Below, one piece after another: positions 13,212-42,551 of a stretch of 64,000 nt of DNA. Positions within the stretch are counted from its first letter, which is position 1; every line of letters begins with the position of its first letter. The notes under the pieces were generated by a model. It saw only the letters and a program-made list of their open reading frames with translations. It did no database searches and had not been told where the DNA came from. Made by a program: the position numbers and the translations under genes. Origin of the DNA: a virus; IMG/VR virus record IMGVR_UViG_3300045988_146982, positions 1,038 to 65,037 of that record; one strand, given 5' to 3'.

Positions 13212-13537
13212 GGCGGTATCTGTTTATGTTTTCCGATATAATCCTTCATGGAATCGGCAAATACTCCGGGGAACAGGTCTATGCTGCTTAATATGGTGTC
13301 CACTTCGGTATCGTCAAGCTCGGTTTCCCCGGTGGAGCGAAATATCTTCTCGGCAAGCACGTGCGCCGATATTCCGGGAATGTTCCTGTAGATGGAATCG
13401 GCATACTCTTCCGCTATGTCCCGCTCCACAACCATGTCCTTGCGTATGTTTGCATACATCGGGAATTTTCTAAAATTTATTTTCATAATCTCTTTCTTAA
13501 ATTGATAAATACATTTCATTCCAATAATATCCGTCAT
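13196..13537 (-). CDS. Hypothetical protein
   Basis: 113-aa ORF with short overlaps to both neighbours. Confidence 0.4.
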   Translation of the reverse strand: MTDIIGMKCIYQFKKEIMKINFRKFPMYANIRKDMVVERDIAEEYADSIYRNIPGISAHVLAEKIFRSTGETELDDTEVDTILSSIDLFPGVFADSMKDYIGKHKQIPPCRKG

Positions 13538-16500
13538 ACATAAAGCCCCGGAAATGGTTGTCCTTGATCGATGTCGAACCGACCGGATTTCTGTTGTTGG
13601 CTTCCCGTATGGAACCGCTCATGGTTATATTCCCGGTATTGGCAGGCTTGATGAATACAATCTTCCCCTTCCACATGGTTGCGGAAGAAGGCAGGCTGAC
13701 AGTAATCGAAGAAGTATTCTTACATACAATCAGATCATCGCTGCTTTTGACAGTATACGAGGATGAAACCTCAATCGCATTAAGTGCCAATCCGTTTATC
13801 CGGACGAACTCTCCGCTTCGTGCAACAATTTCCGCGTTGCCTCTTGACTTCAACGCGTACCCGAAGCCGCCGGCGTTACATAGCAGCTCCAAGGCAATGG
13901 ACAAATTACTGGAACCATAAGTGCTGAAACTTGCCGCCGTCCTGCCATCGGCACGGGCAGCCAAGAATGCGCTGCTTGAAGGGTCGTTCAGCCGGAGGAA
14001 GTTATATCCGCTGATCTCGAATTTAATGGAAGCATTGTTCCCGGATACCGACAAGGAATTATTCGAAATCGTAAACCCGCCGATAGTACCTTTACTCACA
14101 TCAATTGACCCGTTGATTCCATCCAGCGTAAGCGTGCCGCTCTGCGACTGCATCTTCTGGCTCTTGAACATGAACCCGGCAATGTTGGCTCCGTCAATCA
14201 GGGCGGTATCCATCGCCACGAAGCTGAACTTGTTGGACTGTTCCCAATAAGAGGTGTTGGTGGGGGTGGCAGAACCGGAATATCCGTACGGCTTGACAAT
14301 ATAGGCATTGCCGTTATATATCACGATATCGCGGTATTCGCTGTTGTAAACATAAGTCTCGGACGATTTGTATGTGCCGCGGTAGCGCGGCATGGAACCC
14401 GAAGGTCCGCGGTCGCCGGCAGGACCTTGCGGACCCTGTGGTCCGCGGTCCCCATCTTCTCCGTCCGATACTATCTGCGCATAAGCCACACACTCAATGT
14501 TGCTGAACGGTTTTGCCACAATCTTATAATACTTGTACGAAGAGGACACGGAGACCGTGAATGTGGTCGAATAGGAAGAACCGGTGGCATACTGCGACCA
14601 TGATTCGTTATCGTTACTCCGGTATATGTACCATTGGGCGGACTCTGCCGCCTGGGTATTATTACTGTTCTTGTAACAGGTGCAGACAAAAGATGAAGGG
14701 TCCAGTGAGCCTGTTATCTTCTGACCGATGGTCATTTGGGCAGGAGATATGCTATAATAGCAGGCGTCTTCACCGGGTTTGCCATCTTCGCCGTCATGCC
14801 CAGGCTGCCCGGGCTTCCCGTCCTCGCCGTTTGTCAACACGGGAATCGTTTCACGGTCTACAGGTTGTCCGTTGCAATAAAGGGAAAATGTAATGCTTGT
14901 GCCGGCAGACGTTACGGAGAGCGGACTTCCGATGGCGTAGGCAACCTCTTCCCCGTCATCAATCTTACGCATCATGGCATAACCATCCGGCAGGACGGTT
15001 ACACGTACAGGCGCATTCTTCCCGTCCGTCTTGCGGAGCACGCACGTAATGGAAGACACGGAACACGAACCGTCCGAATTCTTTTTGATGGAGCTTTCAG
15101 AAGGGAGCAGGTCGTAAATGACAGCAGGGTCCCCGTCCGTCAGCTTCGTGATGCCGAACTGCACCGGCTTGGAATATTGTTCACCGGCAAACGTGGCGTA
15201 TGCCCGTACCGGGATGGTGATAACCCTGCTGCCGGGCACTGCCGGAATAGCGGTGACGGTAATCACGCCTGTTTCCACATCTTTGGATACACTGACACCC
15301 TCAGACGCTTCCACTTCTATCCTGTCCAATCCAAGCCGGCGCGTGCCATACCACATGCTGACAACAGTCGTGCAGGGCAGTCCGTTCAGCACGTTGCCAT
15401 AGGTGTCGCAATGTACGGCGCACATTTCGTTTGACAGGTCCGCCGATATGATGTTCCATCCGTTTTGGTTGACATTGATGGTATAGGTTTTCAGGAATGA
15501 TGCGTTTCCTTCGCAGTTCACTGTGATGCCGATGCTCATGCCGCCAAGGTCGGTCAGCCCATCCACAATGACAACCCCGTTCTCCACGTGCGCAGTGCAG
15601 CCGACAGGCTCGATTGACACCATGAACGCGCCGGCTTTCAAGGTTTCCGAGTAAACCAGTTCCTTTTCGCCCTTGAAAGCCTGCACGCGGGTGGAAAGGC
15701 GGAAGCCGGTCGCCACCACATTCTCTTCTCCGCCTATTACGTTCCTGCCGCCTGCGGTCACATTCTGCACGGTCTTTGCCCCGTTGATGATATTGCCCTC
15801 TTCGTCCACCGTCACAACACCCTCGTAGCTGGACAGGTTGACGCTGTATGCAGTGAGCTGGTCCACCTGGTCGGGAGTGAACTGGATATGCACGCCGGTC
15901 ATGTAACCGTTCTTCTGGAACGTCCCGTGACCGTGCATCTCCATGCCGCCGATGGTAGTGCCGTCCAGCAGCCCGGACTGGTACATGATATGTTTGTCGG
16001 GGTCAATCTGCCAGGTATCCACTCCCTCCAGGATACGCTTGTAGTAGCGGTTCTCGTAGGTGATGGACTGACGCTCCTTGTCGGTAAAATTGCCGTAGGC
16101 GAAGAAGTTCATCCCGGGCATGGGGTGTACGCCGGTGCCCACTTGCAGGTTGTATTCGAAGCTCATCAGCCCGGCTTTGCTTTCAACAATCCGGGTGGGA
16201 GTAAAATATGAAGTGGCAAAGCCGGAGTATCCCATGAAGCCGTTCTTGTCGAACAGGGTCTGCTCTTCGTTGCTGCCTTCCAAATTGTGGAAGACGCCAC
16301 GACAGATGTCGTTGACGTGCAGCGTTCCCCACTGGTCGTCCAGCAGGTCAAGCGTGGCAATGCGTTTTTCCCTGTCTACGGTCTTAATGGTACCGTAAGC
16401 AAATGTGTTTGCTTTGTCACCGGCTATCACATCAATGCAGTTGAATGTGATTTTGGGAACAATCAGCTCTTCACGGGCAAGAATCCTGTCTATTTCAAGG

Positions 16501-18323
16501 ATTGATTTCCCGTTTTCATCAAGCCACATGGAGGCGCCACGTCCGCCGAGCATGCCGGTAACGAACTTGCCGATACGCAAGCCTTTCATGAAAGTGATAA
16601 TCCCTTGTACGACATCATCCTTTTTCTTACTGATGAACTCAGTGAGCGAGCGCAAAGCCGAGAATGCATTATTGTCGGTAGCCGGTGTGGAATCATTTCT
16701 TTTAATCAGATAAACCCCACTGCCCCAACCGCCTGTATAAGTCTGACCTTTCAGGGTAAGAGATTCTATCTTGCCTTCGAGGTCCCCTATACGCGAGTAG
16801 GCTGCCGTCTCCCCTACTGTATAAATCGGAGAATCATAAGGATAGTCAAGATTAAACTCGTATCCGATAACCCTTGACTGCCTTCCGTTCTCAAAATAAG
16901 CCTTATTGATTAAGTTAACCTTCTGACCGATGCCGTAGAGATTGTGCACTCCGTCCTCACTGTATGCGACATCCGACATCATCTTACAGTTATATGTAGA
17001 AGGGTCTATCTTGGATTTGGCTACAGCTTTCTCCGCTTCGGCTTTCAGCTCTTGTTCGGCGGCACCCACAAGCCCCAGTTCGGTTATTTTCGTACTGTCC
17101 CAACCGGATAGAATATAAGTATCCCCATTCTCAGGAATAAGCACTCCGTCCGGAAGCGGTCTGCCGTAGTTCTCATTTCTGACTATTTCCCAAAGTTGTT
17201 CATTCTTATTGTCAGGGTCGAATGTCACAGCGAATTCCATACCATTCAACTTGCCGGATTGGAAAATGATTTTCAATTCCTCACCGGGAAGGATATAGTC
17301 CTTTGAGAAGGTAATGCCGGTATCCTTGAAGCGGTAGGCATTCCATTTTTCCTCGGTGGTTGTGCCGTCCTCATTCTCCACCTTGTCTGTCACCTCAATA
17401 GTTGTGACATCCGACATGGTGCCGACCCTTCGGGGATAGACTTCATCGAAGATAACCACTTGTTCAATGGCTTCCTCGGTAGTCATATCAGGATAAGCGT
17501 CTATGTACGGAGTTCCGTCGGGCAACATTAAGCGTTTTTGCACAACGCCGTTCAGCACTACAGTCTCATCAACGGGGCGGTAGTCAGATGGGATATTCTT
17601 TGTTGAGCCGAATGCATAGATTCGGGTGGCGTAGGTCGATTGGGAATCGGAACGTGACATCTCTACAACGTTCACCCCGATTTCAAAGTTAACCGCATCG
17701 CCAGACTCACAACGTCCGAAATGGATGATGTTTTCAGTCACCCAACATTCGCAATCCCATTTCTTCGCCATCTCAAAACAGGCGTCAAGGATGTTGATGT
17801 TGTCATAAGTCATCAGTAGCGCCTTATTCTCTACAGTGCTGTCAATGGAGAAAACAAAATCCTGACCTTTATACGCATAACCAAGAGCTTTCAAATTTCT
17901 AAGGACTATACCGGCTTGTACGTCAAGCGGGGCAGTCAGATTCCAGGACGCTTCCTGCCCGGACACTTCGGGGGTATATTTAAAGATTTTGTTTTTCCAT
18001 TTCCAGTAGTGGGCGTCAAGTCTTAATTCGTAATCGTAGCCTGCGTTATCGGTGTTGAATGCGGGCTTCTGCAAGTCGCACACCTCGAACAGCCCGAAGT
18101 CGCACTCCACGTATGAACCAAGTTTGAAATATATAGGATTTTCCAAGGAGAACTTTAACGTGATGTGGTCCTCCTTCATCAGAGTGAACTTACGCTTGCA
18201 GCCTTCATTAACAGGAGTTGTAAGCAGGATAGCACCGGATATGTCTTTGATGTCGATTTGTTCCATGTCTTCAAAGTTCGGAGATAAAAAAAAGAGTGCC
18301 CAATTTTGAGCACTCACATACAC
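13497..18323 (-). CDS. Tail tip / central fibre protein with collagen-like repeats (1608 aa)
   Basis: Lies two genes downstream of the tape measure. Contains G-x-y runs GEDGKPGQPGHDGEDGKPGED and GEDGDRGPQGPQGPAGDRGPSG. The track start is GTG; the first ATG (MEQIDIK) is at 18263. Confidence 0.6.
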   Translation of the reverse strand: MYVSAQNWALFFLSPNFEDMEQIDIKDISGAILLTTPVNEGCKRKFTLMKEDHITLKFSLENPIYFKLGSYVECDFGLFEVCDLQKPAFNTDNAGYDYELRLDAHYWKWKNKIFKYTPEVSGQEASWNLTAPLDVQAGIVLRNLKALGYAYKGQDFVFSIDSTVENKALLMTYDNINILDACFEMAKKWDCECWVTENIIHFGRCESGDAVNFEIGVNVVEMSRSDSQSTYATRIYAFGSTKNIPSDYRPVDETVVLNGVVQKRLMLPDGTPYIDAYPDMTTEEAIEQVVIFDEVYPRRVGTMSDVTTIEVTDKVENEDGTTTEEKWNAYRFKDTGITFSKDYILPGEELKIIFQSGKLNGMEFAVTFDPDNKNEQLWEIVRNENYGRPLPDGVLIPENGDTYILSGWDSTKITELGLVGAAEQELKAEAEKAVAKSKIDPSTYNCKMMSDVAYSEDGVHNLYGIGQKVNLINKAYFENGRQSRVIGYEFNLDYPYDSPIYTVGETAAYSRIGDLEGKIESLTLKGQTYTGGWGSGVYLIKRNDSTPATDNNAFSALRSLTEFISKKKDDVVQGIITFMKGLRIGKFVTGMLGGRGASMWLDENGKSILEIDRILAREELIVPKITFNCIDVIAGDKANTFAYGTIKTVDREKRIATLDLLDDQWGTLHVNDICRGVFHNLEGSNEEQTLFDKNGFMGYSGFATSYFTPTRIVESKAGLMSFEYNLQVGTGVHPMPGMNFFAYGNFTDKERQSITYENRYYKRILEGVDTWQIDPDKHIMYQSGLLDGTTIGGMEMHGHGTFQKNGYMTGVHIQFTPDQVDQLTAYSVNLSSYEGVVTVDEEGNIINGAKTVQNVTAGGRNVIGGEENVVATGFRLSTRVQAFKGEKELVYSETLKAGAFMVSIEPVGCTAHVENGVVIVDGLTDLGGMSIGITVNCEGNASFLKTYTINVNQNGWNIISADLSNEMCAVHCDTYGNVLNGLPCTTVVSMWYGTRRLGLDRIEVEASEGVSVSKDVETGVITVTAIPAVPGSRVITIPVRAYATFAGEQYSKPVQFGITKLTDGDPAVIYDLLPSESSIKKNSDGSCSVSSITCVLRKTDGKNAPVRVTVLPDGYAMMRKIDDGEEVAYAIGSPLSVTSAGTSITFSLYCNGQPVDRETIPVLTNGEDGKPGQPGHDGEDGKPGEDACYYSISPAQMTIGQKITGSLDPSSFVCTCYKNSNNTQAAESAQWYIYRSNDNESWSQYATGSSYSTTFTVSVSSSYKYYKIVAKPFSNIECVAYAQIVSDGEDGDRGPQGPQGPAGDRGPSGSMPRYRGTYKSSETYVYNSEYRDIVIYNGNAYIVKPYGYSGSATPTNTSYWEQSNKFSFVAMDTALIDGANIAGFMFKSQKMQSQSGTLTLDGINGSIDVSKGTIGGFTISNNSLSVSGNNASIKFEISGYNFLRLNDPSSSAFLAARADGRTAASFSTYGSSNLSIALELLCNAGGFGYALKSRGNAEIVARSGEFVRINGLALNAIEVSSSYTVKSSDDLIVCKNTSSITVSLPSSATMWKGKIVFIKPANTGNITMSGSIREANNRNPVGSTSIKDNHFRGFMYDGYYWNEMYLSI

Positions 18324-18344
18324 GACAATAGAGCCAATGTCGTG
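18321..18344. repeat. Copy of the CACGACAAT-N6-ATTGTCGTG palindrome family (imperfect)
   Basis: CACGACAAT agagcc AATGTCGTG, with 7 perfect pairs, in the gap between two tail genes. Confidence 0.6.
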
Positions 18345-18346
18345 AA

Positions 18347-18763
18347 TTAGGTTCTGTTTGCCGGATTCGGTTCGTTGAACTTGGCTGAAATTTTTCCAAA
18401 AGTTAGGTCTAAACTCTGTGCGTAAGTGATACTTTTGCCGAGATAAATCAGATGATAAATCTCGCTACTATTAGCCGGGACTTGAATATCAACCTTGCCT
18501 TTATAAAGCTCATCGAAGAAAGCTTTTTTCTTTGATTGATAATCGGACCGAGAACTACCCTCGATAGCAAACGAAAGAGTTATTTCCCTTTCATCGACTT
18601 TAGGATTATTGATTATCACACGTTTTCCATGTTCCAACCGGGACTTATTTTCTATAAATTCTTTCATGGGTGATGATGCTCCAAGTACATCAAGAAAGCC
18701 CTCTCCCATTCTTACCCCCCATGTTGTGTAGGCGTCTTGGGTATTTATCAATAAATCTGACAT
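18347..18763 (-). CDS. Hypothetical tail protein (distal-tail position)
   Basis: 138-aa ORF immediately after the tape measure gene. Confidence 0.4.
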   Translation of the reverse strand: MSDLLINTQDAYTTWGVRMGEGFLDVLGASSPMKEFIENKSRLEHGKRVIINNPKVDEREITLSFAIEGSSRSDYQSKKKAFFDELYKGKVDIQVPANSSEIYHLIYLGKSITYAQSLDLTFGKISAKFNEPNPANRT

Positions 18764-40158: not shown

Positions 40159-40908
40159 TTATTCAATTCTTTCTACTTGTTCATCGAATACTTCTCCCTT
40201 TATGAACTTCATATCAGGGTCATAACCGAACCTTTCGCAGAATGCGGCTTTAGCTTCATAGGTATCAAAGGACAATATCACATAGGCATCCATGTTCTCG
40301 GCTTGCTTCTGTGCGTTTTCTTTCACCTGATGCTTGACCTCTTTCATGTGGGCAACCTTTTCGGCACGTTCCAACTGCTTGGCGGCTTTATCGGCTTCTT
40401 TCTGTTCGGAAACTGGGACCATCATATCAGACAAAGCATCCGCAATAGAGTTTTCCTCTTCGGTCTGCAAAAGATAGTCAACACCAATCATATTCAAGTC
40501 GGCATCAGTCAGTCCTGCATCTTTCCAGTCAATATCAGGAACAATACGGGCAAGAGCGTCAAAATCCCATGTGCCTTGTGCATTCGGGTTGTTCATTAAA
40601 ATATTCAACTCCTTTTCCTGCTGCTCGTTCACATCTATGACATCGACACGAATGCGGTAGTCGTTATCGGGAAACTTTTGCAATTCGTCCATGACAGACA
40701 AACGCTGGTGCCCGCTGACTACGGTAAGACCTGTACGCTTGTTCACGACAATTCCACCGACTAAACCAAACTTCTTGATGCCACGTTTCAGTGTCTTACG
40801 TGATTCATCGGAAAGTTTCCGGGGGTTATAATCTGCAAAGTGAATGGCAGAACGATTAAGTTCCATCGATTCACTCTTTATGTATTTTGACAATTCCATA
40901 TCATCCAT
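40159..40908 (-). CDS. ParB-like nuclease domain protein
   Basis: ParB/Srx N-terminal domain pattern FADYNPRKL...VVSGHQRL. Confidence 0.65.
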   Translation of the reverse strand: MDDMELSKYIKSESMELNRSAIHFADYNPRKLSDESRKTLKRGIKKFGLVGGIVVNKRTGLTVVSGHQRLSVMDELQKFPDNDYRIRVDVIDVNEQQEKELNILMNNPNAQGTWDFDALARIVPDIDWKDAGLTDADLNMIGVDYLLQTEEENSIADALSDMMVPVSEQKEADKAAKQLERAEKVAHMKEVKHQVKENAQKQAENMDAYVILSFDTYEAKAAFCERFGYDPDMKFIKGEVFDEQVERIE

Positions 40909-41119
40909 TAGTTAAACCCATATAAATTCTTCGAGATACTTTTCTTGCGCCATCTTGTTGTTTCCCCTCATTATACCCAAAGGTTCGTTCAATGTATCGA
41001 ATATACTTTCTTGCCATAGAGTTTACTCTGTTCAGCCTATTACCCGTTAAAGTACGAGATAGTCTGTATCTTTGCTCTGCAATATCATCAATTGATTTTC
41101 TTCTGACTCGGCTTTCCTT

Positions 41120-41797
41120 CTATTGCTTTTGTTGATTATTATACTCCCAAAGCACCCTTTCAGCCATTGGGAAAACTTTGTAAATTCTCTGTAAATCTTG
41201 CGGGTAATTATTCTCCATCCAAAGCATACAATCAAGATTGAAACCTACTCCCGAACTGGCTTTCAATGAATATCGAACTGGTTCGGGTAATTTGTGCTGT
41301 CTCATATAAGCAAGAATGTCCTTTTGTGTCCAATCAGCCAAAGGATAAACCATACCGTTATTCTCGTAACCGTTTACCTCATACCCTTTCAGCATAAGCC
41401 TGCGGTTCATACCATCAGCTTTTTTCATGCCCAAGAATGTATAATAAACTCCATGAGTAAGCTGCATAGCCTTTACCACATCTGCCAACTTCAATAGCTT
41501 TACTTTCGGATTAGGCACGCAATACATACCTCCACGAAGAATATAAGTAAGATTCCAGTGAGGCACTTGCACAAACTCAATCTTTGGATATTTGACTTTA
41601 GTCCAGCCAATCCATCGGTTAATGTGCTCCAAATTCTTGACAAAGTACATGAACACACAAACAATCCGGTCAAACTTCGGATAGATTAAATCAAGCAGAA
41701 CAAGCGAATCTTTGCCAAGTGATAAAAACAGTAAAGCCTCATTCGATTTTACCCGAATGAGGTCTATATACCGGTTCGCTTGTTCTACCTTGCTCAT
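41120..41797 (-). CDS. PAPS-reductase / PP-loop family protein
   Basis: PP-loop variant LFLSLGKDSLVLLDL near the N-terminus. Confidence 0.6.
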   Translation of the reverse strand: MSKVEQANRYIDLIRVKSNEALLFLSLGKDSLVLLDLIYPKFDRIVCVFMYFVKNLEHINRWIGWTKVKYPKIEFVQVPHWNLTYILRGGMYCVPNPKVKLLKLADVVKAMQLTHGVYYTFLGMKKADGMNRRLMLKGYEVNGYENNGMVYPLADWTQKDILAYMRQHKLPEPVRYSLKASSGVGFNLDCMLWMENNYPQDLQRIYKVFPMAERVLWEYNNQQKQ

Positions 41798-41999
41798 AGC
41801 TAACCACCGCTTAAACCAAATGAAGTACGAAGGTCACTATAACGCTGTCTGCGTGACCCCAACTGTGATGTACCAGCTTCACCGCCACGTCTGGCAACCA
41901 ATCTACCACCAGCCCCGGCACCGTTCATATTTCTGCGAGGCCCGGCTACTCTGTTAATTCTTCTTGCGACTCTGCTTTCTAATTTTAAAAGTTGAACAA

Positions 42000-42389: not shown

Positions 42390-42421
42390 AATCGTGTCAA
42401 ATTTAAATTAATACTCAATAG

Positions 42422-42493
42422 TTGCGGGGGGCTGAATCGAACAACCGACCTTCACCAAGTCAAAGTGAAAAGCTACCACTGCTACACCCCGCG
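42422..42493 (-). tRNA. Phage tRNA with an initiator-type acceptor stem (C1xA72) but anticodon GAC
   Basis: Hand-folded 72-nt cloverleaf: CGCGGGG TG TAGC AGTGGTA GCTT T TCACT TTGACTT GGTGA AGGTC GGTTG TTCGATT CAGCC CCCCGCA A. Confidence 0.7.
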
Positions 42494-42551
42494 ATAGTAC
42501 CCCAAAGGTACTACCACAACCAAAGATAACGAAATATCTTCAATCGTTATA

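Follow-up and report, generated by a model that had tools for sequence, protein, structure and literature searches.

In the textbook account of bacterial initiation, a single initiator tRNA with a CAU anticodon reads AUG, GUG or UUG start codons. Orthogonal initiator tRNAs have been built in the laboratory since 1990. Phages are known to carry suppressor tRNAs (crAss-like and Lak phages) that are tied to stop-codon recoding of phage genes. We analyzed a tRNA gene with the body of an initiator and a GAC anticodon, encoded in a 64,000-nucleotide stretch of phage DNA (positions 1,038 to 65,037 of IMG/VR record IMGVR_UViG_3300045988_146982; the whole stretch is called the window below). Sequence comparison with its relatives makes it likely that the product of this gene is an initiator tRNA specific to the phage, which descends from a tRNAfMet-type ancestor, was retargeted from AUG to GUC and serves the private GUC start of a small Arg/Gly-rich open reading frame (ORF).

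The window tRNA resembles bacterial tRNAfMet (E. coli metZWV and metY) in having an identical acceptor stem, including the C1xA72 mismatch, the A11:U24 pair, A73 and the variable loop AGGUC. It differs from tRNAfMet in its anticodon (GAC, not CAU), in the lack of G29-G31:C39-C41, in carrying U37 U38 and not A37 A38, and in being phage-encoded, apparently for a single ORF. In other phages (locus L358) the corresponding genomic position holds a relative with a CAU anticodon that has kept the three G:C pairs. Like phage suppressor tRNAs, the window tRNA is phage-encoded and would alter codon reading, so that expression of some phage genes would depend on it; suppressor tRNAs act in elongation, on stop codons and in many genes, whereas the window tRNA would act in initiation on one ORF. 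The valine tRNA-like structure (TLS-Val) of turnip yellow mosaic virus (TYMV), a plant RNA virus, is likewise virus-encoded and draws its valine identity from A35/C36 plus A73 or C73, but it is a pseudoknotted, non-decoding genome 3' end, whereas the window tRNA is a free-standing cloverleaf whose anticodon matches a specific codon.

The engineered cases come close to the arrangement proposed here. E. coli tRNAfMet with a GAC anticodon (the G34C36 mutant) initiates at GUC (PMC2268962), and tRNAfMet with an AAC anticodon (i-tRNA(AAC)) initiates at GUU and gives formyl-valine proteins (bioRxiv 10.1101/2021.05.25.445580). These mutants are charged with valine and partly formylated (PMC2268962; bioRxiv 10.1101/2021.05.25.445580). 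They share with the window tRNA an initiator body, a valine anticodon and a matching non-AUG start. Unlike the window tRNA, they retain the three G:C pairs and A37; the window tRNA is natural, has lost the triplet, carries pyrimidines at positions 37 and 38 that match mRNA positions -1 and -2, and appears to co-evolve with its target ORF. A literature search returned engineered cases only and no natural non-CAU initiator, although its coverage was incomplete and an earlier report is possible.

The window tRNA and its relatives

The gene folds into a 72-nt cloverleaf (CGCGGGG UG UAGC AGUGGUA GCUU U UCACU UUGACUU GGUGA AGGUC GGUUG UUCGAUU CAGCC CCCCGCA A) in which C1xA72 is mismatched, G2:C71, C3:G70, G4:C69 and A11:U24 are paired, and A73 is present. 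The next base is C, and CCA is not encoded. The anticodon stem UCACU/GGUGA lacks GGG/CCC: pairs 29:41, 30:40 and 31:39 are A:U, C:G and U.G. Our E. coli tRNAfMet query matched at 100% in every one of the 5426 E. coli genomes, with a median of four sites in each. The acceptor stem CGCGGGG/CCCCGCA, U8 G9, the variable loop AGGUC and A73 are common to the two tRNAs. These comparisons bear out the original prediction, made from the letters of the window, on three points: a tRNAfMet-like acceptor stem with C1xA72, together with the discriminator A and the AGGTC variable loop; an anticodon stem (TCACT/GGTGA) without the three G:C pairs typical of initiators; and a 7-nt loop TTGACTT with the anticodon GAC and pyrimidines at 37 and 38.

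An ordinary valine elongator with a paired 1:72, the outcome named beforehand as speaking against an initiator scaffold, is not what ARAGORN returned: it labeled the gene tRNA-Val(gac), at 42421-42493, but drew 1:72 as unpaired c/a. The Rfam tRNA model gave the region alone 39.5 bits against a gathering score of 29, and marked 1:72 and 10:25 as non-standard. Two whole-window Rfam scans, in gathering and E-value modes, did not report the tRNA; this is a filter effect, as tRNAs of unusual composition can drop out at the speed filters.

Several initiator hallmarks are present: the unpaired 1:72, the formyltransferase determinants G2:C71, C3:G70, G4:C69 and A73, and A11:U24, which is among the initiator recognition elements of the formyltransferase (PMC9976931). 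The CAU anticodon with its methionine identity and the three consecutive G:C pairs are absent. As for elongator tRNA-Val (rules from PMC9976931), the identity features found are A73, G45 and an NAC anticodon, which supplies A35 and C36; a Watson-Crick 1:72, a pyrimidine11:purine24 pair and a purine at 37 are missing, their places being taken by CxA, A11:U24 and U37, each of which is conserved.

The only cultured relative of the window is Bacteroides phage BS-TP2, which infects B. salyersiae and in which an identical tRNA gene lies unannotated. We gathered relatives in three ways: by a search with the protein encoded downstream, which has an ASCH domain; by a DNA pattern (at least 120 matches); and by scanning a single genome of each species. 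The tRNA is retained at more than 300 related loci, in phages and prophages of Bacteroidota. The one-genome-per-species scan gave 27 prophage copies, all in Bacteroidota except one on a Lachnospira metagenome-assembled genome contig; the hosts include Bacteroides, Parabacteroides, Prevotella, Alloprevotella, Hallella, Dysgonomonas and Chryseobacterium.

We aligned 26 distinct variants on the cloverleaf and compared them with 500 shuffles. Paired cells made up 94.5% of the alignment, versus 77.9% in the shuffles and 39-52% when partners were slid. The covariation score was 0.508 versus 0.176, a value reached by 0 of the 500 shuffles. Both sides had changed in eleven pairs, and the anticodon and T stems were 100% paired. 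Changes were compensatory or free at 6:67, at 7:66, in the anticodon stem and in the T stem, that is, in three stems. Position 1:72 was unpaired in 26/26 variants, G2:C71, C3:G70, G5:C68 and A11:U24 were invariant, and G4:C69 was found in 25/26. This pattern of invariance corresponds to the published methionyl-tRNA formyltransferase determinants G2:C71, C3:G70, G4:C69 and A73 (PMC9976931). In distant relatives CxA gives way to CxU, UxC, GxA, AxA or a weak U:A, never to G:C or C:G. A73 is invariant within the GAC family, and C73 occurs in the lineages with the loop CUAACCU and with a GGU anticodon.

The loop UUGACUU and the closing U31.G39 are identical in all members of the GAC family. Because 17 distinct sequences retrieved by the neighboring protein alone share UUGACUU, the invariance of the loop is no artefact of the search pattern. 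No GAC, AAC or GGU variant carries the three-G:C triplet, which is retained only by the CAU relative L358. Taken together, the pairing statistics of the aligned variants show that the window RNA is genuine and that selection maintains its structure. They also bear on whether the gene is a relic: a former phage initiator tRNA gene that is now decaying and functionless. A relic would fit the missing annotation in BS-TP2, an extra C in the acceptor run of two contigs and the degenerate D and T loops of the L364/L365 lineage, but it sits badly with strong compensatory covariation and with a loop that is invariant over hundreds of loci in two bacterial classes; we consider it extremely improbable. 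The L364/L365 lineage (also L419 and L420), with its tRNA ~100 nt upstream of the ASCH gene, has no GG in the D loop and a GGCAGAG T loop; in the L364/L365 member the acceptor stem and UUGACUU arm are intact, the RNA goes undetected by ARAGORN, and the small ORF still starts with GUC.

The tRNA gene may well be expressed from its own promoter. Two matches to TAnnTTTG, the Bacteroides -7 promoter box, lie just upstream of it. A short hairpin (TAGTACC/GGTACTA) overlaps the proximal box, and a TAnCTTTG box a few nt 5' of the tRNA recurs among divergent upstream contexts.

The proposed start codon of the small open reading frame

The ASCH gene and a PAPS-reductase-like gene flank the small ORF, which lies ~450 nt downstream of the tRNA. 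It was exposed by comparing stop-to-stop frames between tRNA lineages, which were obtained by a divergent ASCH protein search; its own stop-to-stop frame of 74 codons falls below the 90-codon cut-off of our first screen for ORFs without a canonical start. Homology begins well 5' of any AUG, GUG or UUG. GTC GCA AGA AGA (VARR) aligns with the ATG GCA AGA AGA (MARR) of related phages that have no tRNA, and the window protein VARRINRVAGPRRNMNG.. aligned residue-for-residue with the MARR..NNNAGPRRNMNG.. of those phages. Over the 13 codons from the GUC to the first ATG, variation was biased to third positions and the ratio of synonymous to nonsynonymous changes was 1706:840; over the remaining ORF the ratio was 9762:4613. 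The ratio is alike in both parts, which argues that the codons before the first AUG are translated; judged by this substitution pattern, the comparison shows the ORF to be coding upstream of its first canonical start. BS-TP2 carries this gene as gp53, whose annotated start is an internal AUG; read from the GUC, its product would begin Val-Gly-Ser-Thr-Arg. The small protein, strongly basic and with the C-terminus ..FGLSGG, matched no Pfam or PHROG family.

The start of this ORF differs between lineages as the tRNA does. Phages with the GAC tRNA (loop UUGACUU) start it as ..gcUGA GUC AGA.. or ..AGC AGA GUC GCA AGA AGA... An AAC tRNA with the loop UUAACUU and U1xC72 goes with uuGA GUU AGA, and a second AAC tRNA, with the loop CUAACCU, goes with CGG GUU UUA AGA. 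The GGU tRNA (loop UUGGUUC, G1xA72) is found with gcUGA ACC AGA, and the CAU tRNA (loop CCCAUAU, three G:C kept, U1:A72) with GCU AUG CCG AGA. At ~45 related loci that have the ASCH gene and the small ORF and no tRNA, the start is aagAUU AUG GCA AGA AGA. Thus, the tRNA tracks the start codon and not the ASCH gene.

We scored 222 GAC-tRNA loci (IMG/VR plus genomes). GA-GUC was the first in-frame cognate codon in 214 of them (82 distinct ORFs), and it preceded any canonical start in 213 of those 214. At 100 of these 222 loci an in-frame UGA stood immediately before the GUC, and 11-51 codons separated the GUC from the first canonical start. The GAC/GA-GUC match was also found in ~70 metagenome loci, and a tRNA/start-codon match in Chryseobacterium, Alloprevotella and Dysgonomonas prophages. 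The exceptions were one GAC locus with GUU, which is readable by G.U wobble, two frameshifted contigs and contig L549 (described below). These alignments show covariation, from lineage to lineage, between the tRNA anticodon and the first codon conserved in the ORF, and the window tRNA appears to read the start codon of the small ORF.

Of the roles that the original prediction had offered for the RNA, an initiator scaffold retargeted to a non-AUG codon is strongly supported by this covariation between anticodon and first codon. Another was an unusual elongator, that is, a tRNA-Val(GAC) that supplements host decoding of GUC and GUU and descends by chance from an initiator gene. The ARAGORN label fits such a tRNA, as do A35, C36, A73 and G45, and within the window GUC is used at 11.9 per 1000 codons in late genes versus 7.9 in early genes. 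The conserved 1:72 mismatch, A11:U24 and pyrimidine 37 stand against it. A 1:72 mismatch blocks EF-Tu binding. Valine codon usage in the window's genes appears unremarkable overall, GUY making up 41-43% of valine codons, and an elongator would leave unexplained why changes to AAC, GGU and CAU are each matched by the first codon of one ORF. We therefore consider an elongator very unlikely.

The match extends beyond the anticodon. In the window, GA-GUC faces the tRNA as G34:C, A35:U, C36:G, U37:A and U38.G. Position 37 pairs with mRNA position -1 in all five tRNA types (U:A, C:G or A:U): the GAC, UUAACUU and GGU types have A(-1):U37, the CUAACCU type has G(-1):C37 and the CAU type has U(-1):A37. 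Four of the five types also pair position 38 with -2, by a G(-2).U38 wobble or, in the GGU type, with C38; the CAU type is mismatched. The tRNA-less phages have a UU-AUG context, complementary to A37 A38 of CUCAUAA, the standard initiator loop; E. coli tRNAfMet has this loop, and among phage initiator-type tRNAs it is the commonest. We infer that the pyrimidines at 37 and 38 extend the anticodon to five bases, which would form a five-base-pair helix with mRNA positions -2 to +3. The extended helix could offset the loss of the three G:C pairs and confine initiation to one site and not to every GUC. Pairing beyond 38 was considered and is unsupported: the mRNA motif GYUGA is unchanged when tRNA position 40 changes in the GGU lineage.

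Complementarity and covariation of the loop with the mRNA prove pairing, not the delivery of an amino acid. The RNA could instead be a non-decoding riboregulator whose loop makes a kissing or antisense contact with GAGUC in the mRNA of the small ORF and controls translation or stability without donating an amino acid, initiation proceeding by another route. The loss of the three G:C pairs, the pyrimidine at 37 and the presence in the same phage of other tRNA-like RNAs with loops unable to decode would all suit a riboregulator. However, the conserved N-terminus of the ORF has no canonical start, so that a non-standard initiator would be required anyway; the formylation determinants, A73 and a full cloverleaf are conserved, all needless for a pure antisense loop; and the pairing covers the first codon exactly and in frame. 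We regard a riboregulator as unlikely.

A related context occurs elsewhere in the window. A motif (TAnnTTTG)-N-ACACGATT-ATG recurs at gene starts, at ~13 sites (e.g., 42395, 43117, 43633, 58213, 58829, 59221 and 60156 on the minus strand and 26939 on the plus strand), and probably represents a promoter with a very short leader. The UU before its AUG is complementary to A37 A38 of the standard initiator loop. A search for GUC or GUU starts behind the ACACGATT-ATG leader motif found one GTT only, followed immediately by a stop, and a search for upstream extensions of TTG- and GTG-start genes found nothing.

Genomic context and other tRNA-like elements

The tRNA lies at the junction of the early/replication genes and the packaging/structural genes, all on the minus strand (Table 1). 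The order tRNA, ASCH, small ORF, PAPS-reductase-like and ParB-like gene is retained even among Chryseobacterium prophages. A gene resembling S24-peptidase repressors and the prophage copies show that the phage group is temperate.

Table 1. Positions of the tRNA, the small ORF, their neighbors and other RNA elements in the window.
Feature	Position	Strand	Remarks
Initiator-bodied tRNA, anticodon GAC, loop UUGACUU	42422..42493	minus	C1 at 42493, A73 at 42422; sequence read
Anticodon G34 A35 C36	42459..42461	minus	Direct read; U37 at 42458, U38 at 42457
Two matches to -7 box TAnnTTTG: TACCTTTG (42503-42510), TATCTTTG (42521-42528)	42503..42528	minus	10 and 28 nt upstream of tRNA 5' end
ASCH-domain gene, 129 aa	42000..42389	minus	Pfam PF04266, phrog_625; starts 32 nt downstream of tRNA
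GA-GUC: proposed start GUC 41970-41968, A(-1) 41971, G(-2) 41972	41968..41972	minus	Complementary to tRNA 34-38
Small Arg/Gly-rich ORF, 56 codons + TAG, VARRINRVAGPRRNMNGAGAGGRLVARRGGEAGTSQLGSRRQRYSDLRTSFGLSGG	41800-41970	minus	No AUG/GUG/UUG before codon 15; proposed tRNA target
PAPS-reductase-like gene	41120-41797	minus	Follows small ORF
ParB_N-like gene	40159-40908	minus	After PAPS-reductase-like gene; packaging genes next
tRNA-like gene, 16-nt anticodon loop UUGCGCAACCAAUUGG	58481-58562	minus	Rfam tRNA 37.5 bits, above gathering score; directly after terminator
tRNA-like gene, 45-nt AU-rich anticodon-loop insertion	58845-58954	minus	ARAGORN intron mode
DUF2693-FD RNA (Rfam RF02926, 75 bits)	59494-59542	minus	ACACGATTATG motif 5', as before protein genes

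An ASCH homologue starts at most 200 nt downstream of the tRNA in 219 of 229 family occurrences. The AlphaFold2 model of the window's ASCH protein has a pLDDT of 89.7 and weak fold matches to ASCH structures; we found no sequence match among solved structures, and phrog_625 is a family of unknown function. Such constant company might mean that the RNA is a decoy, an option also raised by the original prediction, or a cofactor of the ASCH protein: a tRNA mimic that titrates, or is the target of, an enzyme that binds tRNA (a host defence nuclease, the formyltransferase, IF2 or the ASCH protein), its match to the ORF being incidental. In its favor, PUA/ASCH domains as a rule bind RNA and have links to translation (PMC7641849). 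Against it, ~45 phages have the ASCH gene and the small ORF, no tRNA and an AUG start, and the covariation of codon and anticodon would be left without a reason. A decoy or cofactor is thus highly improbable. The ASCH protein was also considered as the partner of the tRNA and dropped, as the tRNA-less phages retain its gene and no mechanistic link was found.

The small basic protein ends in Gly-Gly or similar, and the PAPS-reductase-like (PP-loop) and ParB/Srx-like genes always come next (40159-41970, minus strand). It is pure speculation that the small protein is functionally linked to the PP-loop and ParB-like genes, for example as the carrier protein of a modification system.

The original prediction had counted three tRNA-like elements with expanded loops in this phage. 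Two of them are found, with a 16-nt anticodon loop and a 45-nt insertion; a third was not identified, unless the DUF2693-FD RNA was meant. The first is nearly identical in BS-TP2, where one stem G.U becomes G:C and the T loop has the canonical sequence UUCGAUU. In the second, the T stem GCAGG/CCUGC of the window is GUAGG/CCUAC in BS-TP2, a compensatory change, and the long loop is largely different. Both were absent from all fetched loci except BS-TP2. Other IMG/VR phages carry further initiator-bodied tRNAs: UUCAUUC (CAU, U37 C38) in tandem pairs (L243, L246, L258, L303), GUUACAG (UAC, three G:C kept; L326, L328) and UUGACGA (GAC; L325), none of them with an ASCH gene nearby. These odd-loop, initiator-like phage tRNAs suggest that the phenomenon may be wider. 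Elsewhere in the window, the frame of a 1608-aa gene (13497-18323) continues without a stop for 47 codons 5' of the first start of that gene (18323-18464, minus strand), where it overlaps the 138-aa gene that precedes it; this could be a programmed frameshift of the tail-chaperone type.

Proposed initiation mechanism and its meaning

We propose that the window tRNA has a promoter of its own, is processed after transcription, and receives CCA from host enzymes. Valyl-tRNA synthetase (ValRS) would charge it through A35, C36 and A73, a valylation to which G45 also points. The host formyltransferase would accept it because all acceptor-stem determinants are retained, and its formylation is presumed from these same determinants. 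IF2 would then bring it to the P site at GA-GUC, where the anticodon together with U37 and U38 would form the five-base-pair helix. This helix may substitute for the lost three-G:C P-site signature and limit initiation to this site. The engineered tRNAfMet precedents make each proposed step plausible.

Several observations weigh against this mechanism. The main difficulty is that the three-G:C triplet is missing from every retargeted variant: in E. coli the three consecutive anticodon-stem G:C pairs are needed for efficient P-site binding, for acceptance by IF3, and for de novo initiation and re-initiation (PMC2268962). The GGU (Thr) and C73 variants are without some identity elements of E. 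coli threonyl-tRNA synthetase (ThrRS) or ValRS, and so the amino acid that they carry is uncertain. The covarying lineages are few, with five tRNA types, some of shared ancestry. Finally, one short metagenome contig (L549, 1300-2089) carries the CAU-type tRNA known from L358 together with a small ORF that starts with GUC. Its identity to L358 is 100% as far as the conserved 5' end of the ASCH gene, beyond which the two are unrelated. L549 probably arose by chimeric assembly or by recent recombination; a recombinant would have lost its codon-anticodon match.

With these points weighed, we think it probable that the locus represents a naturally evolved orthogonal initiation system. A temperate-phage tRNA and a private start (GUC, GUU or ACC, by lineage) would co-evolve, the five-base-pair helix would replace the three-G:C P-site signature, and production of the small basic protein, encoded at the start of the packaging operon, would depend strictly on expression of the tRNA.

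For annotation, gene finders mis-call such ORFs, as with BS-TP2 gp53 from its internal AUG, and the tRNA is left unannotated or labeled as an ordinary tRNA-Val. The system makes two ideas testable: that positions 37 and 38 extend codon-anticodon pairing at initiation, and that the three G:C pairs are dispensable. It possibly offers ready-made parts for orthogonal gene expression in Bacteroides. If the proposal is true, the window tRNA would be the first natural counterpart of the laboratory orthogonal initiator tRNAs and would break a near-universal rule of initiation. For the phage, it suggests a regulatory logic in which a phage protein would be made only when the phage tRNA is present.
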